From: Promethearchaeota archaeon
GTDB taxonomy: Archaea; Asgardarchaeota; Lokiarchaeia; Sigyniarchaeales; SOKP01
Assembly (NCBI GenBank): GCA_030599585.1
Contig: JAUVNS010000001.1
Location: forward strand, 224,001 to 288,000
Reading direction: 5' to 3'
Length of the DNA: 64,000 bases
Shown: in pieces, positions 10,046-61,007 of the stretch
Numbering within the stretch: the first letter of the stretch is position 1
Layout of the letters: each line of letters opens with the position of its first letter
The notes under the pieces: generated by a model
The model's input: only the letters and a program-made list of their open reading frames with translations
Databases searched by the model: none
Told to the model about the DNA's origin: nothing
Translations under genes and position numbers: made by a program

Positions 10046-10432
10046 CTAATCAACTAATAGTTTTACTCCTTTTACGAGCTGTTGCGGGCTAATTCCGTAA
10101 AGAAATGCCGAATGAAGTGTTTTAATGTCGTTTTCTATATTATTTATGTTTTCATTTTGCTCCCTATAACTCTTTGCAATCTCCTCAAGTTTTGAAAACG
10201 ATAACTCTTTAGAATTATTCATTTTCCCAAAATATCCTCCAAACGCTTTAAACATATTATGCATCAACTCGATTTCTTCATCATTAAATGTTTTCGTGCA
10301 TTCTTCACATACAGTTCCAAAAGAGTTTCCAATTTTTTTAATCTTCACGCCTGATTTAGTATCATTTCGACAAAGAACGCATTTGATATAACTTAGAGTA
10401 GTTTTCTTTTTCGTATATTCTGAGACAATCAT
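10046..10432 (-). CDS. CxxC..CxxC zinc-binding hypothetical protein, paralog of 39802
   Basis: CVLC...CEEC and NMFKAFGGYFG. Confidence 0.75.
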   Translation of the reverse strand: MIVSEYTKKKTTLSYIKCVLCRNDTKSGVKIKKIGNSFGTVCEECTKTFNDEEIELMHNMFKAFGGYFGKMNNSKELSFSKLEEIAKSYREQNENINNIENDIKTLHSAFLYGISPQQLVKGVKLLVD

Positions 10433-10452
10433 AAATTACTAATTTTTTCTGT

Positions 10453-10468
10453 TTATTTAAAAGAAAAA
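10453..10468 (-). promoter_or_regulatory. Pyrimidine-BRE/TATA element
   Basis: TTTTTCTTTTAAATAA about 20 nt before ATG 10432, in a divergent intergenic region. Confidence 0.65.
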
Positions 10469-10589
10469 TATACGGTTCTGAGTATCGTAATTTCCTTTCT
10501 ATAAAACAGCTTGGTAAAATCGTTTTAGAAAAATGTTAGGGTTTAATAATATAGGTGTTAATTATTTGGTGATTCTAAGTGCTTGAATT

Positions 10590-11411
10590 ATGATAATACC
10601 TAAAAAAAAAGAAGCGGAATCATTTGAACATCTTAGAATAAAAGAACATTTCTATTCCTTCCTACCGTTTGACAACAAAATTGACATAATTAAGAAAGAA
10701 TATCCTATCGGTAATCGAATTGCTGATGTTTATTGTAAATTAAGTAATGGTAGAAAAATAGTGGTAGAAATACAACATTCAATGATTCTTGTTAAGGATT
10801 TAATACAACGGACAAAAGAATACAACGAGAATAATTGCTTTGTGTTGTGGGTATTCAACGGTAGTTCGTTTGAACGTTACCCTAAAATTGATGATAATGT
10901 AAGAATATTAGGGTTTGAAAAATGGTGTCACTTGCTTTATCGTGGCCGCGTATATTACATTAATATGACTAAATCCGGTATCCATAGCCCAGTTTATCCA
11001 GCGCATTTTGCAAATTATTACGAACTAAAATATGCTAAATCTGGATTCCAGTTCTATCATAGGGCTTTATCTAAAAAAAGTTTTATCCCGACTTTTATCC
11101 CATCACTAAAAATTAAAACATTTAAAAATATGGGATTTAACTTAGCTTGTTTTTATGACGATAATGTAAGAAAATCGTGCTTAGGTGAAATTACTCAATT
11201 TTTAGAAAATTATAGTATCATTGAACCAGAAGTAAAAAAAATAAAAAAAATGAGTCGAAATCAAAAACTACTATACTTAATTATTGGTATTTACGGCGAT
11301 AAGTATGGATTAAACTTATTATTTAATATATTAAATTACCTTAAAGTCGTTTCTAAAAAAGACTACCGCTATATGAGCGTTATATATCGACACCTAACTA
11401 AGAAGGAATAA
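10590..11411 (+). CDS. CoiA-like PD-(D/E)xK nuclease
   Basis: EHLRIK, EYPIGNRIADV, VVEIQHS, RTKEY, VLWVF. Confidence 0.75.
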   Translation: MIIPKKKEAESFEHLRIKEHFYSFLPFDNKIDIIKKEYPIGNRIADVYCKLSNGRKIVVEIQHSMILVKDLIQRTKEYNENNCFVLWVFNGSSFERYPKIDDNVRILGFEKWCHLLYRGRVYYINMTKSGIHSPVYPAHFANYYELKYAKSGFQFYHRALSKKSFIPTFIPSLKIKTFKNMGFNLACFYDDNVRKSCLGEITQFLENYSIIEPEVKKIKKMSRNQKLLYLIIGIYGDKYGLNLLFNILNYLKVVSKKDYRYMSVIYRHLTKKE

Positions 11412-11430
11412 CCAAACATAAATTCCGGAT

Positions 11431-12006
11431 TTACTCTACTTTTTGAAATATGTAGGCATCGTAGAATGAAGTTTTCTTAATTTCTAACGACAACTTATGA
11501 ACGCTGTTATATTCCCTGGGATCAACCGCATCTGGATGATCTGCGAATTTTTTTTCCCTTATGACTCCGACGGCACGAAGATTTGGTTCGAAAATACAAA
11601 TTTTACCGTTGTTTTTTATCACTCGAACACTTTCATTGTAAGCTGCTTGACCATCTTCAATGTGATGAAGAGCTCCAGAAATAAATACAACATCAAAAGA
11701 TTTGTCTTCAAATGGCATCTTCTCCGCATTAAAAGGAGTGTAAGTAATTAGATGATCGACTTCTGCTTTTTTAGCTGATTTTAACCAATTTTTTTTAGCG
11801 TATTTGGATTCGTCGCTCTCCAATTCTCCAGTTAGCACGTGATAGTCATTTAATGCGAGAGCTATTGCCATTCTACCCTCACCAGTTCCGACATCTAAAA
11901 TTTTAGATTTTTTTTCCAATTTTAATTCTTGAATAATAGGATCGATATTATCAAAAATAAGACTAAACTCTCCCCCTAAAAGCTTTTTAGCATCAATTTT
12001 ATCCAT
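11431..12006 (-). CDS. Class I SAM-dependent methyltransferase
   Basis: ILDVGTGEG, MPFEDKSFDVV, LHHI. Confidence 0.9.
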   Translation of the reverse strand: MDKIDAKKLLGGEFSLIFDNIDPIIQELKLEKKSKILDVGTGEGRMAIALALNDYHVLTGELESDESKYAKKNWLKSAKKAEVDHLITYTPFNAEKMPFEDKSFDVVFISGALHHIEDGQAAYNESVRVIKNNGKICIFEPNLRAVGVIREKKFADHPDAVDPREYNSVHKLSLEIKKTSFYDAYIFQKVE

Positions 12007-12184
12007 TTTATTATAACTCCGTGGTTTTACAGTAAGATTATTATTTTTACATTAGATAATAAGAGAGAATAATAATAATTTCCCCCTATAATTTAGAGAT
12101 GAGATACCATTTTTTAGAATCTTAAAAAATCGTTAATTTTTGGTAGTCCTATCTTTTATTTTACATGAGCTGATTTTCTTAATT

Positions 12185-12319
12185 ATGGAAAAAGTAGCGA
12201 CAAAATTTAAATGGGAACAAGGTTTCGATCCAAAAGTCTTACACTCAATCGAAGTTCCCGATTTAATCTTTAAAGATTGCCTTAGATTCTTAAAGTCTAT
12301 GCATGTGAAGATCGATTAA
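12185..12319 (+). CDS. Possible 44-aa ORF or gene fragment
   Basis: MEKVATKFKWEQGFDPK...HVKID read by hand; no recognisable homology. Confidence 0.25.
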   Translation: MEKVATKFKWEQGFDPKVLHSIEVPDLIFKDCLRFLKSMHVKID

Positions 12320-12394
12320 TAGGAGTTTTATTAGAATTAATATCATAATTTCTATTTTTTTTTTTGAACATAAAAAACAGTACGCTTCACAGAT

Positions 12395-13564
12395 TTAAGA
12401 CGGTCTTCTTGAACATCGTGGTAGGATACCTCCTTCATTAAGAAGGTGAATGGGTTCATTTTCGGCGCATTCCTTAGGATCACAACATGTGTGGCATACT
12501 CTCTTATAAGCATTGAATTCAATTAACTTGATGTCTTTTGAAAGGTATTTATCTCTTACTGGTTCTTCTCTTAATAAATCCGTGCTTAAGTATTTTTTGT
12601 TGTCGTCAGCAAACACAGTAACCACAATTGCGTCTTTTCCTAGTTTCTCTTGAACTTTCAACGCACCTAGAAAGTTAGCACCAGATGATATTCCAACCGC
12701 AATACCTAGCTCATACGCTAGTTTTTGCGCCATTATGATCGAATCACCATCATCAACTCCAATGATACCGTCAAGTTCCTCCAAATTTACGATAGGGGGT
12801 ATAAATTCGTCAGATATTCCTTGTATTCTATGCTTTCCTAGCTTACACCCCGTAGAAAGAGTAGGGGAATTTTCTGGTTCTAACGCGTATAATCTGATCT
12901 TGCTATGCTTTTCTTTCAGGAAACGACCTGTTCCCATGATAGTCCCTCCAGTCCCAACTCCAGCAATAAATGCATCAGGATAAAGAGAGTGAAATCGTAG
13001 CTGCCACCAAATTTCTGGAGCAGTTGAATTGTAATGAGCTTCAAGATTATCGTTATTAGAAAATTGTCTTGGGAGAAAAGCACCTTCGGTTTCTGCTAAT
13101 TCTTCTGTCATTCGAATACTTCCTAAGAATCCACCTTCATCTTTACTAACCAAAGTAATTTTAGCCCCAAGGCTTTGGATTAAGTTAATTCTCTCGTTGC
13201 TTAACCAGTTTGGCATGAAAATTCTCACTGGATGACCCATCGCTCTTCCTATTGCTGCTATAGATATACCGGTATTACCGCTAGTAGCCTCTGCAATTAA
13301 TTGACCGGGAACTAATGTTCCTTTTTGATAGGCTTTTCTAAAAATATACAACGCCATCCTATCCTTTATACTACCTGTCATATTAAGGTATTCTGCTTTG
13401 GCATATAATTTCCGGACTTCTCCTTTGTAAGTAAAGCTTATTGCTAAGAGAGGTGTATTTCCAACGAGTGACTTTAGTCCATTAATTTGCCTTTCAATGT
13501 TCTTATCCATAATTAAACTCCTATAAAACAGAAAATTTACTAATATAATTAGAAAGGTTTTCAA
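12395..13564 (-). CDS. PLP-dependent cysteine synthase family protein; likely start ATG 13510
   Basis: [41 protein letters not shown]. Confidence 0.92.
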
Positions 13565-14141: not shown

Positions 14142-14158
14142 TTTTTTCTTTTATATAT
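14142..14158 (+). promoter_or_regulatory. Pyrimidine-BRE/TATA element
   Basis: TTTTTTCTTTTATATAT upstream of the ThiF gene. Confidence 0.55.
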
Positions 14159-14224
14159 CCTCTAGTAGTTACCGCTGTAACTTAAATTAATCTCAACAAA
14201 CACAATAAAAACAGATGATTATTA

Positions 14225-15091
14225 ATGTTCGTAAATCAAAAAATGAACACATGGACTCCAGCGTATTGGGAACACATTATTAGGAACATCGGACCCATTA
14301 CATTTGAAGAACAAGAACTAATCAGAACTTCACGCATCGCAGTACTCGGAGTAGGCGGTCTAGGCGGTCCACTCGCAGAGAATCTCGTCAGATCAGGCTG
14401 TCAAGACTTAGTGATTTGTGATTTTGATGTGTTCGACGAGTCAAATTTGAATCGGCAAATTTGCACTACTGAGGATCTTGGTAAGAGAAAAATTGATGTT
14501 GTAGAAGTTTTTTTACAGAAGATCGATTCTGAAATAAGCGTTAGGAAGTTTTTTAAAATAACTCAGCAAAACATTGATGAGGTCCTTAAGGATGTGAGAG
14601 TGATCGCGTTGACCTTAGACGATCCCGTCACCTCAATCTATATCGCTAGAGAAGCTCGAAAGCGGGGAATACCTATGATCGAGTCCTGGGGCGTACCATT
14701 CTTGTTTACTTGGTGGTTTACTCCCGAGAGCATAGATTACGAGAGATGTTACGGTCTTGAAACTGAGAAATTCAATTATTTCGAATTGTCTAATCTTAAA
14801 AAGGAAATTAACCTAGCCACTTATCAAGCATTGTTACCAAAAGTGTTTACGATGCCTGGAGTCAGAGAAAAATACGATAGAGAACCTGGAGCGTTCGAAG
14901 AAATGATGAAAGGTTCAATTGGTGCACGATCTTTTGCCCCCTTCGTGAGAATCACATCCGACTTACTGTCGGTAGATGTTATTTTCTCAGGTATTCTCGG
15001 AATAAAACCAAAACACTTAGCTCCTCACTTGAAAGGGTTCGACTACATCAACATGGAAGTCCAGGAAGCTAACCTAACAAATAATAACTAA
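14225..15091 (+). CDS. ThiF/MoeB/E1-like adenylyltransferase
   Basis: IAVLGVGGLG, CDFDVFDESNLNRQ, GKRK; no CxxC zinc pairs. Confidence 0.88.
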   Translation: MFVNQKMNTWTPAYWEHIIRNIGPITFEEQELIRTSRIAVLGVGGLGGPLAENLVRSGCQDLVICDFDVFDESNLNRQICTTEDLGKRKIDVVEVFLQKIDSEISVRKFFKITQQNIDEVLKDVRVIALTLDDPVTSIYIAREARKRGIPMIESWGVPFLFTWWFTPESIDYERCYGLETEKFNYFELSNLKKEINLATYQALLPKVFTMPGVREKYDREPGAFEEMMKGSIGARSFAPFVRITSDLLSVDVIFSGILGIKPKHLAPHLKGFDYINMEVQEANLTNNN

Positions 15092-15110: not shown

Positions 15111-15515
15111 TTATTTGTCTCTATTCAAACCTTCGTCCTCAACAGAAGCGTTATTCTTTCTTTTTAACACAAACCCATTAATTCTATCTGCTACTGTTTC
15201 TAGTAATTTGTTCTTCTCTAAAATTTCTTCCCTTAGTTGAGATTCCACTTTGGTGGGTGAAGAAGTTTGCTGTGTATTTCTTAGGATTTGCATTAGTTTT
15301 TTAGACCTCTTTTCCGCAAAGAAAAAGCCAAAATCCGTTATTTCTTCTACCATGCGACCTCGACATTGAAGTAACAAGTGCTTCAACTCTTTTCCACTGA
15401 TTTTTCCCTCCGTAAAATTTCTTATCGCAATCTTGAGCTCTTCTAATTCATCATCGTTGAAGATTATTTTTTCTACTACATGTTCAAAATTCGCTAACTC
15501 TTGACTTTTTTCCAT
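15111..15515 (-). CDS. Hypothetical helical protein, last gene of the ATPase operon
   Basis: Start overlaps the stop of the upstream gene at 15515. Confidence 0.7.
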   Translation of the reverse strand: MEKSQELANFEHVVEKIIFNDDELEELKIAIRNFTEGKISGKELKHLLLQCRGRMVEEITDFGFFFAEKRSKKLMQILRNTQQTSSPTKVESQLREEILEKNKLLETVADRINGFVLKRKNNASVEDEGLNRDK

Positions 15516-18500
15516 TAAATTCCCCCCAAATCACCCTCAATGTATTGTCTGAAACCATCGAATATTGTGGAATATATTTCGAAGATATCTTTACAGGTTT
15601 CGGCTACTTTGGCCTGATCGTTTACTTCTATCTTTTCACAAGAAGTTAAAAATTGCTTTAGATCATCCACTGTAAACGGAAACCCTTCGACTTTACCGAA
15701 ATTTTTTATAAATCTACTAATATCTTCTGAAGTTATTGCGTAATTCACGCTATAATATTCTTTGTAAACGCTGTGTAAAAATTTAGGGAATAAATCCCTA
15801 CCAGTCTTTATCACTTTCTCGTATTTTTTGTGGTTTAAGTTTTTGTGCATGGTAAAATATTCGTAATATAGAATAGGAGCAAAATTTTTAGAGAGGGCAC
15901 TTCTTAGATTAATAGGATTCAGCGCCTCTGCTGCAGAAGGTTGTGTAGATTCCAGTTCAACTGGTTCATATGTGATGATCGAACTATCTCGCGAATCGTA
16001 ATAGTCTTTTAAAACTCTTTGGTAATGAGGTCCGACCGCAAAGGATGTTTGCATGGACTCCGAACCGCTGGCTCTTCGGGGGTGAGTTTCTGTTAAATAT
16101 TGTTTGTTTACTAAAATCCCAAAAACTTTGTCAATAATTTCTTTCTCTCTCTTCTTTTCTTTTGTAATTTTTGCGATGTAAGGCTTCAACACTTCTTGCA
16201 GCTCTTCTCTCACTTTTTTTTTGTAGAGATTACCTACTTTATCAACCGCTTGGATATTATTTAAAAATTTAATAATGCCCTCTATCAAGTCACTATACCC
16301 GGCGAAATCGCTTTCGAATAGAGTAGTTTGAGCTCTTTTCATAATTTTTTTCTCAGTTTTTTCTAAATCGTAACCTTGATCTCCCATATATCTAACGATC
16401 TCTTGCCACGATAGAGGTTGAATTTGTTGTAATTCTTCGAAGTCAAGTTGCACGGGGAAGGATTGATATATATCCTCCCGTTTAACCACAGCCTCGTTTT
16501 GTTTCATCGCTCCGATGTATCTCGTCTGATATGCTTCATTCCTCCGACTGCTGTAGTAGCCGACTCCGTGTAGGTTCTCTAAATTCATCTGTCCGTTGAG
16601 TACCGCCACATCTTTTTTATCGGATGTTCGAAAAGTTACGATGTTATCGAAGTAATTAAACACGTTCGGGTGCAAATATCTTATTTGCGAGGCAGAACTT
16701 AAAGTTCCAAAACCTTTGTTAACAAATGGGGCAAAAAACTTATCGATCTTGCCGTATTGAATTTTCTTGTCTAAGAAAAAACCGTCAAAAACTATGTCGA
16801 TGTGTGGCAATACAAGAAATTTTGGAGTAAACGATTCTCCAGTCTTCAAATAATGAATCATTTTAGACAATACCACAAACATAAAATAGCACTGTTTGTC
16901 GTAATCTTTTACATCTGAAAGATCTATTATTACAGTTTTGTCGTCAGTGATGAACTCGTGCGCATGGGCAGATTCAAGATTCTGAGGTTGTTGGCGCTGG
17001 ATAAACGAAGACTCTTGGGGAGTGAACTCCTTAAAGAAGGATAGTAACGCTTCCGTGACAGAAGATTTCTCCCAGTCTCGTTGGGAAGTTAAGTCTAATA
17101 CAAGCGTAGAAATATCAATATCGGGATTTCGAAGTATTGTGTTTTTGAACATCTCAATGGTCCGTTCGTCCTTCTTAAAGCACATCGCATACGCGTCAAA
17201 CATGTAGTCTAAATAGGCAAGATTGTTTTTATCGTAGGGTATCTCTGATCGAAGTGGGTTGATCACGATAGTTTTGCCTAGTTTGTGGTAGATAAACTGA
17301 TTTTCGTAGATAGAACCTTGAAAAATTTTTATAACCTTAGACCAATTACCCGTAAAATCGAATACTACTGAAGGATAGCCCACTTTAACCAACTCTACCA
17401 CGATCTTTTGCGCAAGGAGCTCTCGGCTAGTGTTCGTGCCGTTAGTAACGAATAAATTCCGTACTTGCTCGATTAAAAATCCAGCGGGTACTTCTGTTTC
17501 TAAATATTCCGTATTAATAGTTGAGCCAACCGCAATCTCGTTTTTAAGCTGTAAGGGAGTGTTAAATTCTGCGGCTAACCGAGTTTCTACTCCTTTTTTG
17601 AATTGATCGGAAATCGTGGTCAAAAATTGTAAAGTTTTACCTTGATATAGCATATAATTAAGATGAGTACCGTTCCTTCTGAAAAATTTGTTTTTAAGCG
17701 CTTCGAATACTAATCCTGATTCCAATAGATTGTTCCGTAACGGTTTTATTCTAAAATTCAAAAAATTATTCCCAAAAGCAGATTTTAAAACTGCGAATTG
17801 CCGTACTAACCGCCTTTCAATCTCGTCCATCGTTTCAAGAGTGAGTGATGGCGAGTTAGAAACTACCGAAGTAGAATAAGTAGCAATAACGCTCCAGATA
17901 CCTGCTTTTTGTCTGAGCCAATTGTCACGTTGTACTGGATTGCTTCTGCGTTTCATTAAGTAAAATTTTTCTCGTTCATTTAAATATTCAAACCCTTCAG
18001 AGTCAAATTTTTCGAAGTTTAAGGGTCCTAACTGGAAGGTAACCGTAAAAGACATCCCTTCTTTATTTAGCGACTCGTAGAACTTACCGGGATTACAATA
18101 CGGTGGCGGGCTGCAAAAGTAGAGGTTTGCTATTTTAATCCCTCCCGTAGTTTTTCCTTCAATCTGGTAAAAAATGGTCTCTGGCGTTTTTCTCGACTTA
18201 AAAAACTCTATTCTGGTAAAAGGATCGATTACGTTAATCTCCTTAGATTTGAACAGTTTACTTTTTGACAACTGAAAGAACAATTCCTGCCACCACACAT
18301 TTATTAACAAAATAATTATTCCGCTATTGAGTAAAAACCTATAAATTAGAGGTAAGTTGAAAAATAATAGCGATAAATCTAATAAAACTACCAACGCTAC
18401 GATATAGCTCGCTTTTGTGATTGATGTGCTTAACTTAGGGCGCACGGTTTTACAAGTGATTCTTTTCGAATTGGGTTCTATTGGAACATCTCGTTTCAGA

Positions 18501-19288: not shown

Positions 19289-19296
19289 ATTTTATT

Positions 19297-20151
19297 TCAC
19301 CTTTTTCCGTAATACAACTTGTTGATAAAAATTAAGACTACGATAACACCAAAACAAATAAGGGTGGTATTGCTAATAGACACCGATAAAACGCCATACA
19401 TAAAAGATTCTACTAAAAGTATCGCCCCTATCATAGCAAATAAAATAATTACGCTAAAGATCATTAGCTGACCAATATTTTCCTTTGATTGACGATACGA
19501 TATATTATCCTTTAAAGCCCCCGATATTGCAATCTTTCCTCTCGATTTTTGCTCCAAATTCTTCCTTACTGTTTTTAAGTGCAAAATCTTTTCGAAAGCG
19601 TTTTTATCGAATTGGTGGTCGAGTTGAATTTGAAGGGCCTTTTCCTCGTCTTTAATCCTTTGCATTAATATCGGATTAAGCGCATTGTCACTTTTTCTCC
19701 TTTTAGATTGGCCACCTGAAAGAAAAGAAAACATAGATACTGTACGATTTCGGTTTAACATTTCTGAGTTGATATTTTCGTGTAAGTTCGGAACTTCTAG
19801 TTTCCGAAGCTCGTAATACGCTTCAATTACGCTCTTCACCTGCTCAAGATTTATATCCCCTTGTCGTTTCAGAAACAAAAGCTCTATTTGAGACAAATAC
19901 TGTATCATTTCGGGCTTGAACACCGCTACATTGAAATTAAGGGCAAAAATTTTATTTACAAGTTCCATGTATTCAAAAATATTCTCGCCAGAATCCTTTT
20001 CCCTTGTTCGCATGCCTAATTTAATCCCTATTTCGCCAACTGCGTTGCTTACGAGTACAAAACTTACCACCGCTAGCTTTTTATAGTTGCCTGTTTCTTT
20101 GCAGAGTTGTATCAGTCGTTTTAGCTTTAAATCTAAAAGTTGCTTGCTCAC
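19297..20151 (-). CDS. Hypothetical protein with C-terminal TM hairpin
   Basis: Soluble N-terminus and 2 TM; 4-nt overlap with upstream gene. Confidence 0.75.
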   Translation of the reverse strand: MSKQLLDLKLKRLIQLCKETGNYKKLAVVSFVLVSNAVGEIGIKLGMRTREKDSGENIFEYMELVNKIFALNFNVAVFKPEMIQYLSQIELLFLKRQGDINLEQVKSVIEAYYELRKLEVPNLHENINSEMLNRNRTVSMFSFLSGGQSKRRKSDNALNPILMQRIKDEEKALQIQLDHQFDKNAFEKILHLKTVRKNLEQKSRGKIAISGALKDNISYRQSKENIGQLMIFSVIILFAMIGAILLVESFMYGVLSVSISNTTLICFGVIVVLIFINKLYYGKR

Positions 20152-20900: not shown

Positions 20901-20951
20901 GTTACATTAAACTCTATTTGTTTTCACTTATGGAGCCTAAAATCGCCGTGA

Positions 20952-22781: not shown

Positions 22782-22809
22782 GAGAATCTATTCTTATGAA
22801 AAGTCGTCT

Positions 22810-51718: not shown

Positions 51719-51754
51719 CGTAAATTTATTTTTACTTTAAGGTAAAAATCGATG

Positions 51755-51769
51755 CTTATAAAGGAAAAA
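51755..51769 (-). promoter_or_regulatory. Pyrimidine-BRE/TATA element
   Basis: TTTTTCCTTTATAAG. Confidence 0.65.
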
Positions 51770-51921: not shown

Positions 51922-52938
51922 TTAATAAATTGAGTATATTTCCTCCTCGATAAACTTGCCATTATCTAGTATCTGTTTTTCATCAAACCAAAGAGAACAG
52001 TTTTGCATCACACCATCCACATGAGTCCCCGCATTCCATTTTGCTCCAGTTTTTTCGGAAATTGGGCTCCCAAATGCTAAATGCACTCCCGGAAATTTTT
52101 CATCCTGCAATATATTACCAACAAATTCTTTTAATGCAATATTTGTCCCGCATGCAAATTCCCCTACCCTATCTGCATTTTCCACTAGTTGCAAATATTT
52201 TCTAAATTCGAAGAGTAATTCTTCATTTTCACACGAGATATTCTCTATTTCTGCTTTTGAATTTTGTATAGGAATTTTTATTGGGGTTTTCTTTAGATCC
52301 CCATATTTTTCACAAAAGAAGGCACCTAAGGTTCCGTCTACCACCATGACTCCATCTACAGATTCCGGGCAAGTAAATACCTCTCCAGCAGGAAGGTTAC
52401 CCCACATACCTTTATGCCATAATAATCCCGCATCTGGAATCCATTTCAATTTATTTGAAAATTTAACATTAAGATCTGTTCCATTAGGAGTAATAACCCT
52501 TGCTGTTTTAGATTTAACCGCAATTCCCATTATCATGAATGTTAAAGAAGCAATCTTATAATAATTAGCTTGCATGCCGGTTTTCAGTATGGTATCATCG
52601 ATATTGGGCATGTGAATTTCTCTTCCATTTTTAGTTGCTAACATTATCAATCTCCCTATAAGGAATTCGTCTTTTTTGGCATGAGCTGTATAATAAGTAA
52701 CATCGCTCTTTTTTAAATCGGCTCTAATCTCCTTTGGGAAAGATCTTAGAGGTCTTTCACCGTAATCATCTAAGATATGAACATGTATGTTTGTGGAAAT
52801 CTCACTAGCATGTCTTTTTATTAGCATGCCTATGTCAATTGAATCTTTATCTGTAATGATTGATACAACTTCTTTAGGTTTTAATTGAGAACACGTTTCT
52901 ACTATGGTTTTACCTGCTTTTTCTAATAGTTTTTTCAA
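51922..52938 (-). CDS. M29-like (thermophilic) aminopeptidase
   Basis: TPNGTDL, NLPAGEVF, GEFACGTN, DEK..GVHLAFG, HVD. Confidence 0.88.
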   Translation of the reverse strand: MKKLLEKAGKTIVETCSQLKPKEVVSIITDKDSIDIGMLIKRHASEISTNIHVHILDDYGERPLRSFPKEIRADLKKSDVTYYTAHAKKDEFLIGRLIMLATKNGREIHMPNIDDTILKTGMQANYYKIASLTFMIMGIAVKSKTARVITPNGTDLNVKFSNKLKWIPDAGLLWHKGMWGNLPAGEVFTCPESVDGVMVVDGTLGAFFCEKYGDLKKTPIKIPIQNSKAEIENISCENEELLFEFRKYLQLVENADRVGEFACGTNIALKEFVGNILQDEKFPGVHLAFGSPISEKTGAKWNAGTHVDGVMQNCSLWFDEKQILDNGKFIEEEIYSIY

Positions 52939-53048: not shown

Positions 53049-53064
53049 TTTTTCTTTTAAATAA
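53049..53064 (+). promoter_or_regulatory. Pyrimidine-BRE/TATA element
   Basis: TTTTTCTTTTAAATAA, 23 nt before ATG 53088; divergent region. Confidence 0.7.
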
Positions 53065-53075
53065 TTTCCAATAGA

Positions 53076-53312
53076 ATGCTATTTATTATGGTATTATTTG
53101 ATTATTTTGAGGACGTGATTAGTGGCTTCGAGTTTTGGATTGCCTTTGGCTCGCTTGTGGGAATCTTTGGACTCTTAATCGGCATTATGTTAGCTGTATG
53201 GGGCGGAAGTCGGCTTCGCTATAAGATGCTAGGAGTTATAATCATATCGTTTGTGTTGATAGCGATTTGCGGGTTCGACACTGGGTTCAAATACTTCAGG
53301 ATTTTTAGATAA
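53076..53312 (+). CDS. Small 2-TM protein, VirB2/CedA1-pilin-like architecture (likely start 53088)
   Basis: Helix, TM, basic loop SRLRYK, TM. Confidence 0.65.
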   Translation: MLFIMVLFDYFEDVISGFEFWIAFGSLVGIFGLLIGIMLAVWGGSRLRYKMLGVIIISFVLIAICGFDTGFKYFRIFR

Positions 53313-53329: not shown

Positions 53330-53701
53330 TTAGTAAAAATGATATCCTTGGGGTGGCTGGCTCCCTCCAATCACTATCCCTAAAAGCTCGAAAGGGACTC
53401 CTGTAAGGAAAGCACCAATCCAAAGTAATAGTGCGCTAGACAGAAACGATTTAACTCTGAATTGGCGGAAAAAGATTCTGAGGATGTTTATTACTAATAA
53501 AGCACCCCCTATAGTAAGAAAAATTTGTCCTACGCTCACAAAAATTGTTTTGACAAATGTTCCTGTCATATAACGCAAGTTTGATCCGAAAAAAGGCACG
53601 ACTATTGCAACGAACCCTAATATCCCGAGAAATATTAAAAAGGTTTTGTTGGGCTTCCTTCTTTTTTGGATGATTACTATTTGATCTTTATATTTTACCA
53701 T
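53330..53701 (-). CDS. Small 3-TM protein, possible pilin precursor
   Basis: Basic N-terminus + TM, then TM-RQFRVK-TM. Confidence 0.65.
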   Translation of the reverse strand: MVKYKDQIVIIQKRRKPNKTFLIFLGILGFVAIVVPFFGSNLRYMTGTFVKTIFVSVGQIFLTIGGALLVINILRIFFRQFRVKSFLSSALLLWIGAFLTGVPFELLGIVIGGSQPPQGYHFY

Positions 53702-53741
53702 GCAGATAATCCTCTATTTTTATTTAATTTTTTAACTAAAT

Positions 53742-53756
53742 CTTTATAAAGAAAAA
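53742..53756 (-). promoter_or_regulatory. Pyrimidine-BRE/TATA element
   Basis: TTTTTCTTTATAAAG; divergent region. Confidence 0.7.
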
Positions 53757-54200: not shown

Positions 54201-54216
54201 TTTTTCTTTTTATAAT
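54201..54216 (+). promoter_or_regulatory. Pyrimidine-BRE/TATA element
   Basis: TTTTTCTTTTTATAAT 19 nt before the fen ATG. Confidence 0.65.
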
Positions 54217-54235
54217 CTGTAATGACCTAAATTGT

Positions 54236-55336
54236 ATGGGAGTTAAACTTCAAGATTTGGTGATCCGAAACGCGATTGAATTTTCCAAACTCGCAGGGAA
54301 AATCATAGCGGTTGATGCTCCGAATGTAATAATGAGCTTATTCAACTTCGCCCGCAAAAACACGGACGGCTCCAAAGCTGGACTCATTCTCGACCGCACA
54401 CAGAGACCGATATCACACCTCTATGGTTTGCTTTTTAGAATAAAGTTCTTCTACTCCAAGAAGATATTTCCAATTTTTTGCTTCGACGGGCTCGATTCCG
54501 ACCTCAAAAAACTTAAAACGAAAGATAGGCTCAACGACTTCTTGTTTACGGAAAGGTTATACCGATCATTACTCCAAACTGGGAATCGAGAGAACGCTAA
54601 GCAAATCGCTTTATCGAAAGAGTATATGTGGCCCAACATTATCAAAGAATCTAAGCAACTACTAGGGGCGTTAGGAGTGCCATACATGAGCGCACCCGCC
54701 TCAGCAGAATCGCAATGCGCTCAACTCATTAAAGACAAAGTAGTTCATTACTCTAACTCGCAAGATTTCGATTCGCTTCTGTTTGGGTGTCCGCATGTAG
54801 TCCAGAACATCTCGAAGTCGTTAAGAAGAAAAGAGCATGGTCGCTGGACATATAAAAAAATCACTCCGGTTACGATCGATCTCAAAGAAAACCTAATAAG
54901 GTTGGGAATTGATCAGTTTCATTTGGTAGACATGGCGCTCTTAATCGGAACCGATTACTTTCCAGGTATTAGAAACATCGGTCCAAAACACGCGTATAAA
55001 TTCATCAAAAAACACCGATTCGTAGAAAATGTGATCATCGAAGAAAAAGAAAGTTACGATTTTTCGGCCTTGAGTTCCGAAGTTATTGCTCGCGTAAGAA
55101 AAATCTTTTTACTCCCTGAAGTCTTAATAGATTACCCAAAACTGAGCTGGAATTACCCCAGCGATCAGCATACGCTGAGCTTATTGTGCGAAGATCACCA
55201 CCTCAACCGAGAAAGAGTGGAGACCAACCTGAACAAATTGGAGACGAATTACGAAAAATGTCAAGTATTTTTCTCCAACAAAACGAGAAATCCTCCTACA
55301 AAACAAAAAACATTCGACTCAATTTTTTCTAACTAA
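54236..55336 (+). CDS. fen: Flap endonuclease 1 (divergent paralog)
   Basis: MGV start, IAVDA, SHLYG, FDG, SQDFDSLLFG, GTDY..GI..IGPK, PIP box QKTFDSIF. Confidence 0.9.
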   Translation: MGVKLQDLVIRNAIEFSKLAGKIIAVDAPNVIMSLFNFARKNTDGSKAGLILDRTQRPISHLYGLLFRIKFFYSKKIFPIFCFDGLDSDLKKLKTKDRLNDFLFTERLYRSLLQTGNRENAKQIALSKEYMWPNIIKESKQLLGALGVPYMSAPASAESQCAQLIKDKVVHYSNSQDFDSLLFGCPHVVQNISKSLRRKEHGRWTYKKITPVTIDLKENLIRLGIDQFHLVDMALLIGTDYFPGIRNIGPKHAYKFIKKHRFVENVIIEEKESYDFSALSSEVIARVRKIFLLPEVLIDYPKLSWNYPSDQHTLSLLCEDHHLNRERVETNLNKLETNYEKCQVFFSNKTRNPPTKQKTFDSIFSN

Positions 55337-55344: not shown

Positions 55345-55359
55345 TTTTTCTTTATAAAG
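55345..55359 (+). promoter_or_regulatory. Pyrimidine-BRE/TATA element
   Basis: TTTTTCTTTATAAAG, identical to the 53742-53756 copy. Confidence 0.65.
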
Positions 55360-55377
55360 GCTCACTGAATCGTTTAT

Positions 55378-56034
55378 GTGCTAAATAAAATCCTAAACAA
55401 CAAAACTAACGAAATTGAGAGAAGTATGGCAGGATTAACGAACGATGCGATAGTACTGCATAACGAATTAAGAGCCTATAGAAATGCTCCAAGGAAAGAT
55501 GTAAACAAGGAGAAAGTTCTTAATTATTTTTTTAGGTTCGAAAGCTTTGCGAACAACACCAATGAATACAAGGATTTAACCCCTTTGATCGTCGAGAACA
55601 TTGTAAAAGAAACCAACCTACCCGATTTCGTCGTATTAAACACAGTTTTTGAGTTCATCACTGAAGCGACCCAATTCAGTCATACTTTAAGTTTGGGACT
55701 CGTATCGTGGGGCTCAGGAGAGAAAAGTGCTTTGCGGCAAGCGAAGTTTTACTTAAGAAAAGTTCATAAGATCGCCCCAGTGTTTGATTATTCCAGAGCG
55801 ATTGCTAACTTGGAGACTTTACACAAACTCTTAAAGAAAAACTTTTTTTGGGTTCATATCACTACTCAGCTTGCCTTAATTATATTCGTCACTGACAGAA
55901 ACGATCCCACAATAACGAAAAATGAGTATATTCTACAAAAAAACCTAAGGGCATTTTGCGCGTGTTCTGCTTACGCCTTCCATATGGCTCGAAAGAAGCT
56001 TCATATTGATAAGATGGGACGGCTCTGCACCTAA
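55378..56034 (+). CDS. Hypothetical helical protein, C-terminus resembles a TFB cyclin repeat/HTH
   Basis: TTQLALIIFV...ILQKNLRAFCACSAYAFHMARKKL. Confidence 0.6.
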   Translation: MLNKILNNKTNEIERSMAGLTNDAIVLHNELRAYRNAPRKDVNKEKVLNYFFRFESFANNTNEYKDLTPLIVENIVKETNLPDFVVLNTVFEFITEATQFSHTLSLGLVSWGSGEKSALRQAKFYLRKVHKIAPVFDYSRAIANLETLHKLLKKNFFWVHITTQLALIIFVTDRNDPTITKNEYILQKNLRAFCACSAYAFHMARKKLHIDKMGRLCT

Positions 56035-56069: not shown

Positions 56070-56085
56070 TTTTTTCTTTAAATAC
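56070..56085 (+). promoter_or_regulatory. Pyrimidine-BRE/TATA element
   Basis: TTTTTTCTTTAAATAC, identical to the 22810-22825 copy. Confidence 0.7.
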
Positions 56086-56127
56086 TCAGTTACTCACTTT
56101 TACTTATTAGTAAAAAATTGAGAGGTT

Positions 56128-57057
56128 ATGAAAATGAGCGTCTTAGTAGACGAGCTATTCCAAAAGTTATTGGACCTTGGATTGTCAGAAGAAGAGTTAG
56201 AAAAAAAAGTTAAGGACAAAGTAGACGAATACGGTGGTTTTATGTCTAAACAAGGAGTGTTGTTTATAATAGCTAGAGAAAACGGGCTTGATGTAAGATC
56301 TCCAGATATTGACGATTATGTTTACGACGAGTTAGAAGAAGAAGTCGATTACGACGAGTTCACAATAGACATCTCGGACCTAAGAGAGGGTATGAGTAAC
56401 ATCGTGTTATTGGGTAAGATTCTATCTTTCCAAAAAGTGCGCGAGTTCGTGCGAAAGGACCAGTCTGTCGGAAAAGTGTGTTCTATCTTACTGGGCGATA
56501 CAACTGCAACTGTGAAAATCGTTTTATGGGACGATCGAGCAGATATTGTTAATCAAGAATACTTTAAACCGAAAGAACTCGCTCGAGTAATTGGTGGGTA
56601 TTCAAAATTAGGACAAAACGAAGCTTTAGAAGTTCATATCGGAAGAAAAGGTATGTTACTTCTTTCTCCTGAAGTTAGTGATAAGAAACGAAGACAATTC
56701 GAAGAAATTATGATTGCAAGTTCAGAAGAAACAACACCCAAGAGTAACTTAGAACCTCTGAGACAAGCCATCCAAAAAAACAAATACATCAGCGCTGTTA
56801 AAGGAACTCTTCAAATCGAAGAATTTAAGGAATTAGAGTTGAAATCAGGTGATAAGTCGTTTTTGCTCACCATGTTTTTAGAAGTAGAAGGATTTACTAT
56901 CAGAGTGAAAGCATGGGGCATGAATGCGGTTGAATGCTTGAAAATGGTGAACGACGGAGATTTCGTTTCTATAACCAACCTGGCGGTTAAACAGAACAAA
57001 TACACCGCAGAGAAAGAGCTTATGATCACGAAAAATTCAAGAGTGTTGTTAATCTAA
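56128..57057 (+). CDS. Replication protein A-like ssDNA-binding protein (2 OB folds)
   Basis: N-terminal YGGFMSKQGVLFIIARENG, ISDLREGM, LGDTTATVKIVLWD, second OB RVKAWG. Confidence 0.85.
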   Translation: MKMSVLVDELFQKLLDLGLSEEELEKKVKDKVDEYGGFMSKQGVLFIIARENGLDVRSPDIDDYVYDELEEEVDYDEFTIDISDLREGMSNIVLLGKILSFQKVREFVRKDQSVGKVCSILLGDTTATVKIVLWDDRADIVNQEYFKPKELARVIGGYSKLGQNEALEVHIGRKGMLLLSPEVSDKKRRQFEEIMIASSEETTPKSNLEPLRQAIQKNKYISAVKGTLQIEEFKELELKSGDKSFLLTMFLEVEGFTIRVKAWGMNAVECLKMVNDGDFVSITNLAVKQNKYTAEKELMITKNSRVLLI

Positions 57058-57167
57058 CTATGAGTATTAGAGAAACGAATTTAATTAGAAGAGAGATTTT
57101 ACCTAGCATTTTAAGAACTTTTTTATAAGGTTCATTTTTTGTTTAAATATCCCACTTTTTTCTAAAG

Positions 57168-57842
57168 TTGAAAATCATGATAACTAAGCAAAAAGTAAAC
57201 GCATACAAACTCATCGGCTTAGAAACACCTTCTAACTCCTTTTTAACGCTTTTAGGAAGGGTTCTATTTTATTGTGGCGCTAGCTACATCCTATTGTTAA
57301 TCTTGAACGTTGTGCTGTCTTTGTTTTTCGGATTTTCGCTCACAACAAATTACATTAGCGACTTGGGAAGCAAGATATTTATCCCTTTTCCTTATATACA
57401 TAACTTGATTTGCGTGTTTGGAGGCGTGGTAAGCCTTCCGATTAATTTTTATGTGAAGAAAAAGTTACGGATCACATACAAGAGTTCGAGGTATTCCGCA
57501 TTGTTTCTCGAGTTCGGTGTCGCTTTAGGAGTAATTGGAAATATTGGATATGTGTTCTTAGGAGTGTTCAGTTTAGACAGGGCAGGTCCAGGAGGTATTT
57601 ATCACGGTATTATTTCCTTTATTTCGTTTGGCGGTTATATTTTTTCTATCTTCTTTATTAGCTTGAACATTGTTTTGTCTCATAAGTGCAAACTGAAACA
57701 TTTGGGCCTATTTGGGATAGTCGTCCCCTTGAACTTGTTGGTTCTATATTGTATAATTTCGATCCCTCTTATCGAGTGGTTTTTATTAAGCTCTATCTTG
57801 GCGTTTTTGCTTATGTTGAACTTTTATGTGTTCAAACTTTAA
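57168..57842 (+). CDS. DUF998-like membrane protein
   Basis: FSLTTNYISDLGS, GVFSLD...H, PLIEW; variant element TTTTTTGTTTAAATAT at 57135-57150. Confidence 0.7.
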   Translation: MKIMITKQKVNAYKLIGLETPSNSFLTLLGRVLFYCGASYILLLILNVVLSLFFGFSLTTNYISDLGSKIFIPFPYIHNLICVFGGVVSLPINFYVKKKLRITYKSSRYSALFLEFGVALGVIGNIGYVFLGVFSLDRAGPGGIYHGIISFISFGGYIFSIFFISLNIVLSHKCKLKHLGLFGIVVPLNLLVLYCIISIPLIEWFLLSSILAFLLMLNFYVFKL

Positions 57843-58016: not shown

Positions 58017-58328
58017 TTACTTCGGAGGTGTAAGAACGATCTCTATTGAACTTACATTATTTTCACGGCCATCCTCGCCCTTAAGTTGCTCCGTAGAAAT
58101 GCGAATCTCTTTATATTCAACTCCTTTCAAAAAGCGGTTTTTTAAGATCTCGCAAATATCGACGGCGTGAGAAATCGCTCTACCACGAGCCTTTACGGTG
58201 CATTCTTCTCCTTTATTCAGGACCATCATTACAGCCATTACATAATTCATCGTAGGGCGACGGCCAACAAAAACCGCGTTCTCTTGACCTGGCTCTCTTT
58301 CTCTTTTTCCTTTTTCTTTTTCTGTCAT
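58017..58328 (-). CDS. albA: Alba chromatin protein
   Basis: VFVGRRPTMNYV, VKARGRAISHAVD, VSSIEIVL. Confidence 0.95.
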   Translation of the reverse strand: MTEKEKGKREREPGQENAVFVGRRPTMNYVMAVMMVLNKGEECTVKARGRAISHAVDICEILKNRFLKGVEYKEIRISTEQLKGEDGRENNVSSIEIVLTPPK

Positions 58329-58512: not shown

Positions 58513-58529
58513 TTTTTTCCTTTATATAC
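58513..58529 (+). promoter_or_regulatory. Pyrimidine-BRE/TATA element
   Basis: TTTTTTCCTTTATATAC; divergent from alba. Confidence 0.7.
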
Positions 58530-58579
58530 TCGAAACTCGTTACTCACAAAAAATAAGATTTATTGGTGATATGTAAAAA

Positions 58580-59113
58580 ATGACAATATACGTCCCTAAA
58601 GCGCTTTACGAGAATGAAATCGCCCGAGTGTTAGACGAGGTGCGGTACAATTACGGAATGCTCACTAGAAAAGGATTCATTAATGGACTCATTGCTATAG
58701 ACCAAGATGCGAAAATAATCGCAATCGATTCTCGGTTCGACAGGAAGTTAAATTATTGGGACTTAAGTTCCATTGGAGCGGCGTTGTATGGAGTCGCCCG
58801 GCAAGCGCAAGATTTTTTCGAAACCGACTCTTTAGTCCGCGCAACGCTAATCTATAAAGACTTGCAACTCTACATCAAATCAATCGGAGATGTGATTCTC
58901 GTCAAAAAAGGAAAAAGAGAGATTTTAGTAGTTCTTTTAGTAGACAATCAAGTCAACATTGGCGTGCTCATACTTCAAATGCGCAAGTTTGCAGCAAAGA
59001 TTAAAGACGCAATCATGCGAAGCCAAACAATTATGGAAAAGCTGCAGATGTCAGAACGAGATCTCAAAGAGCATCTCAGAGACTTAAAAAGAAAGGTTTT
59101 TGGGACGGCATAA
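58580..59113 (+). CDS. Roadblock/MglB-like protein
   Basis: LIAIDQDAKIIA, LSSIGAALYG, VNIGVL roadblock pattern; adjacent to an MglA-like GTPase. Confidence 0.72.
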   Translation: MTIYVPKALYENEIARVLDEVRYNYGMLTRKGFINGLIAIDQDAKIIAIDSRFDRKLNYWDLSSIGAALYGVARQAQDFFETDSLVRATLIYKDLQLYIKSIGDVILVKKGKREILVVLLVDNQVNIGVLILQMRKFAAKIKDAIMRSQTIMEKLQMSERDLKEHLRDLKRKVFGTA

Positions 59114-59137
59114 ACCATATCAGAGGCGAGCTAAAAA

Positions 59138-59806
59138 ATGACAATAGGTTCCAACCATAAAGAAAAGCATTTGGAAAAAGAACAACTCGGCATTAGTGAT
59201 AAATCCGGAGCGAATTCTCTTAAAGAAGTGTTGCAATTCAAAGTTGTTTATTGGGGTCCTGGCGAGTCTGGGAAAACTACTAACTACTTCAGGTTAAGAG
59301 AAAAATTTGATGGAGTAAAACTAAACCGAGGATATTCTATTGAGACCACTGACGGAAGAACTCTGTGGCAAGATTCGATTCGATTGTCTTTCTATCTTAA
59401 CCTCGAGAGAGTCAAATTTAACATCGTAACTCAAATCGTGACTGCGACCGGGCAGGAACGGTTTTTGTCCACTCGTGAATACGTATTGGATGGTGCTGAC
59501 GGCGTTGTATTCGTCGCAGACTCCGATCCTAAGAAAATAGAGCAAAACAAACGAAGTTTTCGAGAATTAATCAGTTTTACAAGTGAACAGAACGTTCCTT
59601 TCGTTATTCAGCTCAATAAAAGGGATTTAGAAGGAGCTATTCCTGAAAAAGAATTTAAAAAAGAGCTTGGTTTACCAAAGTTTGAGAAATACGAAGACGG
59701 AACTCAAGTAATTTATCCCACCGTTGCGATCGAAGGAGATAGCGTGAGGAAATGCTTCGAGGATTTGATGGTGCTCGTGTTATTAAACTTTTTCAAGTTG
59801 AATTAA
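59138..59806 (+). CDS. MglA-like small GTPase
   Basis: KVVYWGPGESGKTTN, RTL, TGQERF, VLDGADGVVFVADS, NKRDL. Confidence 0.88.
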   Translation: MTIGSNHKEKHLEKEQLGISDKSGANSLKEVLQFKVVYWGPGESGKTTNYFRLREKFDGVKLNRGYSIETTDGRTLWQDSIRLSFYLNLERVKFNIVTQIVTATGQERFLSTREYVLDGADGVVFVADSDPKKIEQNKRSFRELISFTSEQNVPFVIQLNKRDLEGAIPEKEFKKELGLPKFEKYEDGTQVIYPTVAIEGDSVRKCFEDLMVLVLLNFFKLN

Positions 59807-59837
59807 TAGATACAAATAATTATTTTTCAAATTCCAT

Positions 59838-61007
59838 GTGAAGAGGAGACTAATGGACACAGGAGACGATTTTATTACTTCAGAATTTTTACATTTGCTG
59901 TTTTTTGAGCAAAAGAATTTAGTAATATTTCCTTACGTCGATTTGAAACACCTTAGGTCTGTGGATTTGTTTATCGTAGGCTTCGAGACAGTAGACATCG
60001 ATTCCACCGTAATCCACAACCTAAATGAGATAATAGAATACGAGTGTAACAATTCCTATTCTCAACTACAAACTCTTTACTTCATACTCAACCCTTCGTT
60101 CGAAGAACTGGAGATATTAGTGGATTCCCCTAGGTTAAGATGCGTCATCAACTCAAAGGAGAACGTAGAAAACTTAGCAAACGGCGATCAGTTCGTCTTT
60201 TACAACAAAAAAAACAATACTTTCTTAAACTACGAGTTTGAAGGTAGAGATTTATCTTTTGAAGAAGAGATACTACGAAGTTCTCCTACCACACAAGCAA
60301 TCGTGGACGAGCTTCTTAAAATCAAAAGTGTTTCTTCTAAAATTTTTTCCGAGTTAAATCAAAACAATAGTTCCGATAACCTTTCCGAAATTCTTGACGA
60401 ATACGACCAGAAATATTGGAATAAAATTCTACGGTTTACTGGGTTGTATTACCAAATAGAAATCCCGGAGTTTGATCGCCCTGTCCAGTTACCTAAGAAG
60501 AAAAGTTCAAGTAAAGAGATCGACTACTCTGCAGAGTACGAAGTGATTATTAAGACCAACCGAAAAATAGGAAGGTCGTTTATTCACTTAATCCACGATT
60601 ATCGCTACGACAGGGTCAATCCGGCAAATTTAGAAGTATTACAACTTTTTTACCCCCAGAAACTTTACAATTACCTTAGGAATCACCATTGGAAAAACGG
60701 AATGCCGATAGAGTTCGCGATTACATGGCTTAAAAACATCCAAAAAGATTTTTCGGACCCCGAAGAGGCATTAACGGAGTTCCAGGTAATACTAAATAAG
60801 TTGCATTTGTCTTATTCTGTTAATAATATCGATTTAGAGTGCAAATCCGAACCAGAAAAAAAAGAAGCTATTCGAAGCAAAATACCAGAAACTATACCGA
60901 ATGTAAAACAACCGAGAAATACAAAGGCGATTCCTTCAACTAATAATTTTCCTGAGTTCAAAAAGTGGTTATTAAACAAATTAAGCGAACTAGAAAAAAT
61001 CGTGTAA
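59838..61007 (+). CDS. Hypothetical protein, third gene of the MglAB unit
   Basis: 389-aa ORF 31 nt downstream of the GTPase. Confidence 0.7.
   Translation: MKRRLMDTGDDFITSEFLHLLFFEQKNLVIFPYVDLKHLRSVDLFIVGFETVDIDSTVIHNLNEIIEYECNNSYSQLQTLYFILNPSFEELEILVDSPRLRCVINSKENVENLANGDQFVFYNKKNNTFLNYEFEGRDLSFEEEILRSSPTTQAIVDELLKIKSVSSKIFSELNQNNSSDNLSEILDEYDQKYWNKILRFTGLYYQIEIPEFDRPVQLPKKKSSSKEIDYSAEYEVIIKTNRKIGRSFIHLIHDYRYDRVNPANLEVLQLFYPQKLYNYLRNHHWKNGMPIEFAITWLKNIQKDFSDPEEALTEFQVILNKLHLSYSVNNIDLECKSEPEKKEAIRSKIPETIPNVKQPRNTKAIPSTNNFPEFKKWLLNKLSELEKIV

Follow-up and report, generated by a model that had tools for sequence, protein, structure and literature searches.

What is a paralog of the archaeal transcription initiation factor TFB doing among a run of membrane and recombination genes that share one promoter element, and do these genes form a single programme? 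The question is raised by part of the genome of an uncultured Promethearchaeota archaeon (assembly GCA_030599585.1, 4.85 Mb; designated G000 here, with other G-numbers for other genomes of the genus). The window that we analysed is the 64,000-nucleotide stretch at positions 224,001 to 288,000 of contig JAUVNS010000001.1 (C20); gene content was established from six-frame open reading frames (ORFs) and Pfam scans of the window, and gene calling on the whole assembly gave 4171 genes. An initial annotation had proposed a competence- or mating-like regulon. We lean, with modest confidence, towards a related reading: that a conserved island of about 62 kb in this genus of the Promethearchaeia (Lokiarchaeia) acts as one transcriptional programme, whose role, judged by analogy, would be DNA exchange and recombination. 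No published description of the island, or of its promoter class in Asgard archaea, was found in the literature.

That the unit is a discrete, relocating and multi-copy island goes beyond the initial annotation. It occupies the window from about 10,000 to the end at 64,000 and continues to about 72.4 kb of window numbering (G000:C20:~234.0–296.4 kb). In G015 (contig C25) and G007 (contig C35) the orthologs of the flanking genes, at window 6458 and 8013 on one side and 72566 and 73357 on the other, lie 4–6 kb apart with the island absent, and this empty site sets the limits at about 10.0 and 72.4 kb. Paralogs of nearly every conserved gene, syntenic and 57–96% identical, are present elsewhere in G000 on contig C12 (8–77 kb) and on C49 and C52, with further island fragments on C6, C23 and C16; the genome holds two to three diverged copies, and several congeners hold two.

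The promoter element is a run of thymines ending in C, or in C and a pyrimidine, that abuts a TATA box (TTTAWAWA) on its upstream side, with the consensus T(5–8)-C/G-(Y)-TTTWWAWW. Its two registers have 15 and 9 matches in the window, where dinucleotide shuffles would predict 2.6 and 1.5, and none of 100 shuffles reached the observed numbers. The promoter-oriented copies all lie 25–85 nt before a start, with the exception of that of RadA, which is 160 nt from the annotated ATG, and an excess of A is seen 29 nt after the first base of the TATA box, where a transcription start would be expected. The cluster of elements extends from 10.4 to 71.4 kb of window numbering. Between 10.4 kb and the window end, 20 of the 22 transcription units that are conserved among the island copies carry the element, and none of the 16 lineage-specific inserted units does (Fisher p = 7e-9); the gene for Alba (58017–58328), which lies within the island, is among those without it. 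The shared element claimed by the initial annotation was thus confirmed, and it was found before the VirB4/HerA-like operon, the HhH protein, Hel308, the Hef operon, a 990-aa protein, the RadB-like operon and RadA, as well as the Topo-Zn-ribbon operon, two small transmembrane (TM) proteins, FEN1, RPA, a five-TM protein and a GTPase operon, all as listed there.

Could this simply be the usual TATA promoter of an AT-rich genome, or a strong form of it? T-rich DNA is common at 33% G+C, and in single-copy congeners one 14-mer, counted over the whole genome, is barely more frequent than its reversed control; but the clustering, the in-register conservation, the invariant C and the absence from inserted genes (Alba included) and flanking genes make that explanation scarcely credible. 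Counting as promoter-placed those copies that are intergenic and aimed at a start within 200 nt, 68 of the 145 in the genome lie within segments of the island family, which make up about 5% of it, and the element is about 18-fold denser there than in the rest of the genome. Inside island segments the four positions upstream of the TATA box are about 75% T and are followed by C, whereas outside them the positions upstream of TATA-like boxes have background composition. Orthologous promoters keep the element, both in the copies on C12, C49, C52 and C23 of G000 and in the species G009, G011, G015 and G016; alignment of orthologous upstream regions reveals it as a conserved block amid diverged spacers, and in those four species strict copies precede island genes but hardly any flanking gene. 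The element is therefore neither a general promoter nor a strong-promoter variant, given its distribution among conserved and inserted units and the background composition elsewhere; it is a conserved and island-specific promoter class. Two broader searches were less informative. When all 3031 upstream regions were searched for motifs by expectation maximization, the search slid into a weak T-rich pattern and left the generic TFB-recognition element (BRE) undefined, and the 14-mer counts in 40 relatives were too noisy to correlate with island presence, with only multi-copy genomes standing out (59 versus 12 in G000, 45 versus 23 in G016, and 44 versus 22 in G018).

Two further occurrences of the element deserve mention. 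At the 3′ end of the RadB-like gene lies a second copy in the opposite orientation (TTTTGCTTTATATA; 39731–39748 on the minus strand), which is preserved in C12, C49 and G016 and takes a variant form in G011; it could be an antisense or a divergent promoter. Away from the island, six motif-bearing units form a cluster at G000:C9:324000–340300 (L039), with a paralogous segment at C10:1–15000 (L041). The products of the C9 cluster are a B12 radical-SAM enzyme, a polynucleotide kinase/phosphatase (PNKP) whose ortholog lies inside the island in G011, an mTERF protein, an XPD helicase, and proteins of 484 and 619 aa that are distant relatives of the TFB-like protein discussed next; a related 592-aa protein encoded on C10 has three TFIIB-type zinc ribbons.

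The initial annotation had placed a divergent TFB among the element-bearing units, and here the gene stood but its promoter did not: the 426-aa protein encoded at 35932–37212 on the minus strand belongs to the TFB family, and the element is absent from its own upstream region. It is the only TFB-family gene in the island, which contains no TBP gene; 10 canonical TFBs and 3 TBPs are encoded elsewhere in the genome. The protein is full length, with an N-terminal C4 zinc ribbon, two cyclin folds and an extra C-terminal part of about 110 aa. A single-sequence search of the Protein Data Bank (PDB) returned nothing useful and the Pfam TFIIB repeat model does not reach it; a profile of seven sequences, searched against the same database, retrieved TFIIB entries only (cyclin 1 with E 0.008, the 1pft ribbon with E 0.12), and hhalign aligned it to the 10 canonical TFBs of the genome over 254 columns that extend from the ribbon through cyclin 2 (probability 97.4%, E 1e-11). 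The ribbon has CxxC pairs at residues 25 and 42 and matches Pfam Zn_Ribbon_TF with E 6.7e-5, under the curated cut-off. For its AlphaFold2 model (predicted local distance difference test, pLDDT, 59) the top 35 Foldseek matches are all TFIIB, TFB or Brf, including 1d3u_B (TMt 0.60, root-mean-square deviation [rmsd] 5.0). Profile and model alike thus identify it as a genuine, although very divergent, member of the TFB/TFIIB family. We also note a block (AGCAAACTGGTGATCTT, as read on the minus strand) at window 37276–37292, upstream of this gene, which is conserved in C20 and C49 and has one change in G016, and which is a candidate control site for the TFB-like regulator.

The divergence extends to the parts of the protein that bear on promoter recognition. 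The canonical sequences of the B-reader/linker and of the helix-turn-helix that reads the BRE are absent: the '...RAF...' motif reads RPYD, and the recognition helix VTEVTLR reads KMSTIHR, although the helices themselves are present in the model. As seen in the Pyrococcus woesei TBP-TFB-DNA structures 1AIS and 1D3U, TFB contacts the BRE directly upstream of the TATA box. As the T-run and C occupy just this position and the sole TFB of the island is altered in the corresponding part, a private TFB/BRE switch would be the most economical model. In this model some signal would switch on the island TFB, which together with a host TBP and RNA polymerase would initiate at the pyrimidine-BRE promoters, turning on the whole island together with a few off-island units (the XPD, PNKP and mTERF cluster).

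TFB3 of the Sulfolobales is a truncated co-activator that lacks the DNA-binding core, whereas the island factor is full length with both cyclin folds, which speaks against a simple analogy to Ced or competence. In the DNA-damage programme of this order, the Ups pili, the Ced DNA importer and the herA operon are all induced under TFB3 control (PMC9905601, PMC6101591), and there as in the island a TFB paralog is tied to a VirB4/HerA-like membrane system and to homologous recombination genes; the differences are that a distinct element occupies the BRE position of the island promoters and that the island genes form one relocating block rather than dispersed operons. With full-length alternative TFBs, as in the haloarchaeal families and Sulfolobus TFB2, a complete TFB paralog likewise serves a defined gene set. 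The BRE of TFB2 resembles that of TFB1, with spacing alone differing (bioRxiv 10.64898/2026.09.06.749720), in contrast to the sharply different pyrimidine run at the BRE position in the island, whose factor is moreover encoded within the gene set that it presumably drives. Streptococcal ComX offers an analogy of one initiation factor and one promoter box serving uptake machinery together with recombination proteins, but it is a bacterial sigma factor without homology to TFB, and uptake, demonstrated for ComX, is for the island a proposal.

What, then, does the programme encode? The ORFs and Pfam scans bore out most of the genes that the initial annotation had listed between 10 and 61 kb, and left many proteins without a family. 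The products are divergent, extra recombination proteins and a membrane set comprising the VirB4-fold protein, small proteins with 2–5 TM segments, an HhH binder and a surface protein. The largest of these, of 1257 aa, is encoded in an operon at 15111–20967 on the minus strand (motif 20953–20967) together with proteins of 250 aa (3 TM), 284 aa (3 TM) and 134 aa. The initial annotation had called it a membrane VirB4/HerA-like protein, and this is upheld by its two N-terminal TM segments and by an AlphaFold2 model of residues 330–1257 (pLDDT 64), whose top Foldseek matches are HerA, TrwK/VirB4 and TrwB. Against the C-domain of VirB4 (4ag5_A) the VIA Z-score is 18.8 (rmsd 4.6, 312 residues aligned); HerA, TrwB and DndH-C have Z of 16–18, and full-length TrwK/VirB4 aligns over 410–468 residues, N-domain included. 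Single-sequence searches of the PDB with this protein and with the 990-aa protein, and a search of PDB sequences with a VirB4-like profile, gave nothing useful. The family has more than 300 members, with no Pfam domain on record, and those that carry a source name are all annotated 'hypothetical protein'. The C-terminal helical domain of the 1257-aa protein (window 15518–16100, model residues ~800–923) gives a marginal match to a HEPN-domain protein at Z 8.7, which is in the noise range for helical bundles.

Immediately upstream of the VirB4-like operon is the gene for a 603-aa protein (20970–22824, minus strand; motif 22811–22824) in which an N-terminal HhH (residues 19–72) and a TM hairpin (residues 445–487) bear out the description of a membrane-tethered HhH protein. 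The 990-aa protein (31250–34290, minus strand; motif 34277–34290) has TM segments at both termini, together with a prenyltransferase-like alpha-alpha toroid, and is presumably at the surface; the second surface protein that had been ascribed to the regulon, of 658 aa (42054–44030), did not hold up, being a non-conserved insert preceded only by a degenerate T-run. Smaller membrane proteins are a 78-aa protein (53049–53312, plus strand; motif 53049–53063), whose family is conserved as a two-TM hairpin whose loop is basic, a 123-aa three-TM protein (53330–53756, minus strand; motif 53743–53756) and a 224-aa five-TM protein without a family match (57136–57842, plus strand; motif 57136–57149). The labels 'M50-like protease' for this last protein, 'MglAB' and 'pilin-like' in the initial annotation found no family support.

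The recombination genes had been taken for dedicated paralogs, and that they are extra paralogs was upheld. With the exception of RadA, the recombination proteins score below their NCBIfam family cut-offs and are therefore divergent paralogs; homologs with more standard scores are encoded elsewhere in the genome, for Hel308 on C35, for Hef on C4 and C9, for RadA on C27, C24 and C15, for FEN1 on C32 and for RPA on C3. The Hel308-type helicase of 844 aa (22952–25570, plus strand; motif 22952–22966) has the Pfam DEAD, Helicase_C and archaeal helicase domain 4 matches and is far under the NCBIfam Hel308 cut-offs, with its closest non-island homolog (C35_38603) at 30% identity. The Hef-type helicase of 750 aa lies in an operon (27811–31205, minus strand; motif 31191–31205) with a 191-aa protein and a DUF1922 Zn-ribbon protein of 170 aa; it scores 559.7 bits against a Hef cut-off of 610, and the match spans positions 3–564 of the 781 in the model, stopping before the nuclease part. 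The FEN1/XPG-family nuclease of 366 aa (54201–55336, plus strand; motif 54201–54215) scores 266.8 bits against a fen_arch cut-off of 352, and its closest non-island homolog, C32_121258, is 33% identical. A RadB/KaiC-like ATPase of 237 aa with an intact Walker A motif is encoded with proteins of 255 aa (4 TM) and 117 aa (2 TM) at 37843–39719 on the plus strand (motif 37843–37857), and an RPA-like OB-fold protein of 309 aa at 56071–57057 on the plus strand (motif 56071–56084).

The RadA paralog (46774–48082, plus strand; motif 46774–46787, TTTTTCTTTATAAG) has Pfam Rad51 and HHH_5 matches and an added C-terminal HhH, and its N-terminal HhH is encoded from 46841 without a canonical start codon. 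The frame opens right after three stop codons (46832–46840) and contains no ATG, GTG or TTG before the Met at 46934. The N-terminal HhH is conserved, and as most of the substitutions relative to G011 and G016 are synonymous, the region is probably translated; this would need either a non-AUG start (perhaps the ATT at 46844) or a +1 shift from a short upstream TTG ORF across the A6 run at 46839–46844. The core and the C-terminal HhH of RadA are fused in C20, G011 and G015, and are two ORFs overlapping by 8 nt in C12 (L004:12364–13657), C49 (L009:9424–10693) and G016 (L029:7048–8263), the split form reflecting a frameshift, a programmed shift or decay.

The expectation of the initial annotation that the orthologs co-occur and keep the motif was borne out across the genus. 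Among 24 other genomes of the genus the VirB4-like gene is present in 20 and the TFB-like gene in 22, with one or both in 23, and the two share a contig in all nine genomes that allow placement of both matches; gene order is preserved in G009, G011, G015 and G016. Loci in metagenome-assembled genomes (MAGs) of Promethearchaeota number 35, some on contigs of 0.8–1.3 Mb, and the named relatives are all Promethearchaeota/Promethearchaeia MAGs. The location varies: in G015 the island separates the orthologs of two genes that are neighbours on contig C8 of G000, and in G009 it lies beside C26-like genes. In the tree of VirB4-like proteins, ((C20, G002), (C12, C49)), the topology has full support, and G002 is single-copy. 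We considered a mixed-strain bin as the source of the extra copies in G000, and disfavour it; redundancy at 75% identity or more is restricted to the island contigs (C12, C49, C6, C51 and C38) and the C9/C10 segment, compared with about 0–3% in the bulk genome, and the extra copies are therefore treated as real, though the island of a co-binned relative may remain among them. The marker-gene 'contamination' of G000 is 8.9%, and it is about 8% in the two-copy congeners G005 and G016 but 5% in the two-copy G018; the extra RadA, FEN1, Hel308 and TFB-type genes of an island present in two to three copies may inflate such estimates for MAGs.

Occupied and empty sites, variable position and several copies are what an integrative and conjugative element (ICE) would show, as is a large block with a VirB4-fold protein, and a private promoter is found in many mobile elements. 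On this explanation the VirB4-like module would export the island, the private TFB and promoter would be the element's own switch, and the recombination genes would serve its integration; that the C12/C49 lineage is sister to C20 plus G002, though G002 has a single copy, could be counted in its favour too. Yet no integrase or transposase family was found in Pfam scans of 69 proteins, no relaxase, replication initiator or replication module turned up among the proteins scanned, there is no tRNA gene in the window, and neither the island ends in G000 nor the junctions in G015 have terminal direct or inverted (att-like) repeats above chance, the longest words common to the island ends being 12–13 nt, a length that shuffled G015 junctions match in 35 of 200 trials. 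Furthermore, the island is near-universal in the genus rather than patchy, its divergence between species ranks with that of flanking host genes, the VirB4-like ATPase motifs are dead (see below), and neither the VirB4-like nor the TFB-like protein had a relative in IMG/VR scans. We therefore favour a vertically kept, relocating cluster over a freely transferring element, and consider a self-transmissible ICE distinctly improbable; the island appears to have been kept vertically in the genus and yet to have moved and been duplicated as a block.

Multi-copy relocating islands are typical of proviruses and anti-virus defence islands. HerA-fold proteins occur in defence systems, and the Hel308-like helicase resembles Hachiman HamB models; but PADLOC returned only generic helicase similarity (HamB, Cas3) and one marginal mad8 match for the RadB-like protein, leaving the membrane proteins unmatched, and there was no sign of a HamA partner. 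Searches of PHROGs with 20 unassigned island proteins gave no functionally annotated match and five marginal ones (E 0.001–0.007), four to unknown-function or generic DNA-binding families and the fifth to the HhH in a ligase family, none of them capsid, portal or terminase. With the absence of IMG/VR relatives already noted, a provirus or defence island seems very unlikely.

As for function, we suggest that the programme would couple membrane DNA handling with recombination, and that its most likely role would be DNA import or exchange and integration, in the manner of the Ups/Ced response of the Sulfolobales; this proposal derives from analogy with TFB3/Ups/Ced and with the Ted loci and their Rad50 and HerA neighbours. 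The Ted loci of the Thermoproteales (TedA/B/C) adjoin rad50 and herA (PMC9905601), and like the island they couple a VirB4-like component derived from a type IV secretion system (T4SS) to recombination genes; no sequence similarity between the two was detected, however, the recombination set of the island is much larger and comes with its own TFB and promoter, and homologs of the pilin and channel are unverified.

Several observations weigh against a role in DNA exchange. The VirB4-like protein contains no [AG]xxxxGK[ST] motif anywhere in its 1257 aa; at the strand-loop-helix position where a P-loop belongs, 15 of 15 homologs have NGTN[ST]SRE, and their Walker B strand is IIDLS, so that the modelled fold is best described as a conserved pseudo-ATPase of the VirB4/HerA type which, by standard motifs, would be unable to hydrolyse ATP and is no working equivalent of CedB/TedB. 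The models of this and of the TFB-like protein are themselves of only moderate confidence. The island membrane proteins have 2–5 TM segments predicted by a simple hydropathy scan, with no VirB6/CedA-like channel of 6–7 TM identified among them, and PDB sequences searched with a profile of the 78-aa family yielded no pilin, although sequence methods are not expected to see one. The 603-aa protein has no signal peptide, and its HhH is probably cytoplasmic. The conserved core includes no relaxase or DNA-uptake nuclease, and the CoiA-like nuclease gene at 10590, which lacks the motif, belongs to a lineage-specific insert. For the competence- or mating-like regulon of the initial annotation, then, the promoter class, the TFB, the VirB4 fold and the paralogs stand, while the analogy to Ced is weakened by the dead P-loop and the lack of an identified channel, and the functional reading is weakened accordingly with neither channel nor pilin verified.

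The same genes, moreover, fit a programme of repair without intercellular DNA transfer, in which DNA damage or replication stress would be met by the recombination enzymes while the membrane proteins would tether or organise the damaged DNA, or have some other function in the envelope. All of the conserved enzymes are of repair or recombination types, XPD and polynucleotide kinase/phosphatase are among the off-island products, and both the catalytic degeneracy of the VirB4-like protein and the HhH without a signal peptide agree with it. It leaves unexplained, though, why VirB4, including its N-domain, should be the best structural match of the largest protein, and why at least six small TM proteins and a surface protein should be kept under one promoter across species; we regard it as unlikely. 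A bolder form of the exchange reading seems to us possible but doubtful: that the island is a block-mobile programme of mating and recombination, with a private TFB and pyrimidine BRE, a T4SS-derived conduit built around the pseudo-VirB4, and recombination paralogs that parallel the division of labour in eukaryotic meiosis. By analogy, the second RadA would correspond to Dmc1, Hel308 to Mer3 and the nuclease-less Hef to FANCM, alongside an XPG/FEN1-family nuclease and a second RPA.

The remaining conserved units are the following. A 128-aa protein with two CxxC pairs (10046–10468, minus strand; motif 10454–10468) is a paralog of the 128-aa Zn-ribbon protein encoded at 39802–40188, whose unit spans 39765–40188 on the plus strand (motif 39765–39779). 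A ThiF/E1-like adenylyltransferase of 288 aa is encoded at 14143–15091 (plus strand; motif 14143–14157), and two small proteins of 93 and 90 aa at 26800–27443 (plus strand) have degenerate motifs at 26800–26814 and 27125–27138. The Topo-Zn-ribbon operon (50365–51769, minus strand; motif 51755–51769, with one mismatch) encodes a 108-aa Zn-ribbon protein of weak Topo-I type and a 345-aa 3-TM protein. Beyond FEN1 are a 218-aa protein without a family match (55345–56034, plus strand; motif 55345–55358) and an operon for proteins of 177 aa, an Arf/Ras-like small GTPase of 222 aa and a 389-aa protein (58514–61007, plus strand; motif 58514–58528).

The largest non-conserved insert, at 40307–46666, lacks a strict motif and is without counterpart in the C12 and C49 copies; it encodes a 131-aa protein, a cupin, a 189-aa protein, the secreted 658-aa protein, a CopD-like protein, a Fer4 membrane protein and a PNPOx-like protein. 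Other non-conserved inserts, in addition to that with Alba, are at 10590–13564, 25593–26693, 34416–35847, 48804–50263 and 51922–52938, and the inserted genes without the motif also include a methyltransferase, a PALP enzyme, a radical-SAM protein, a split alcohol dehydrogenase and an M29-like protein. The zinc-dependent alcohol dehydrogenase is split into ORFs of 121 and 180 aa (34930–35847) and is probably a pseudogene.

If the island TFB does read the pyrimidine element, this would be a natural case of an archaeal basal factor acting in the manner of an alternative sigma factor with its own BRE, and the roughly twenty ready-made promoters make the idea directly testable in vitro. It would give Asgard archaea a dedicated, inducible recombination toolkit tied to a T4SS-like membrane complex, and would bear on how genes were exchanged, and perhaps on how meiotic specialisation began, in the lineage closest to eukaryotes.

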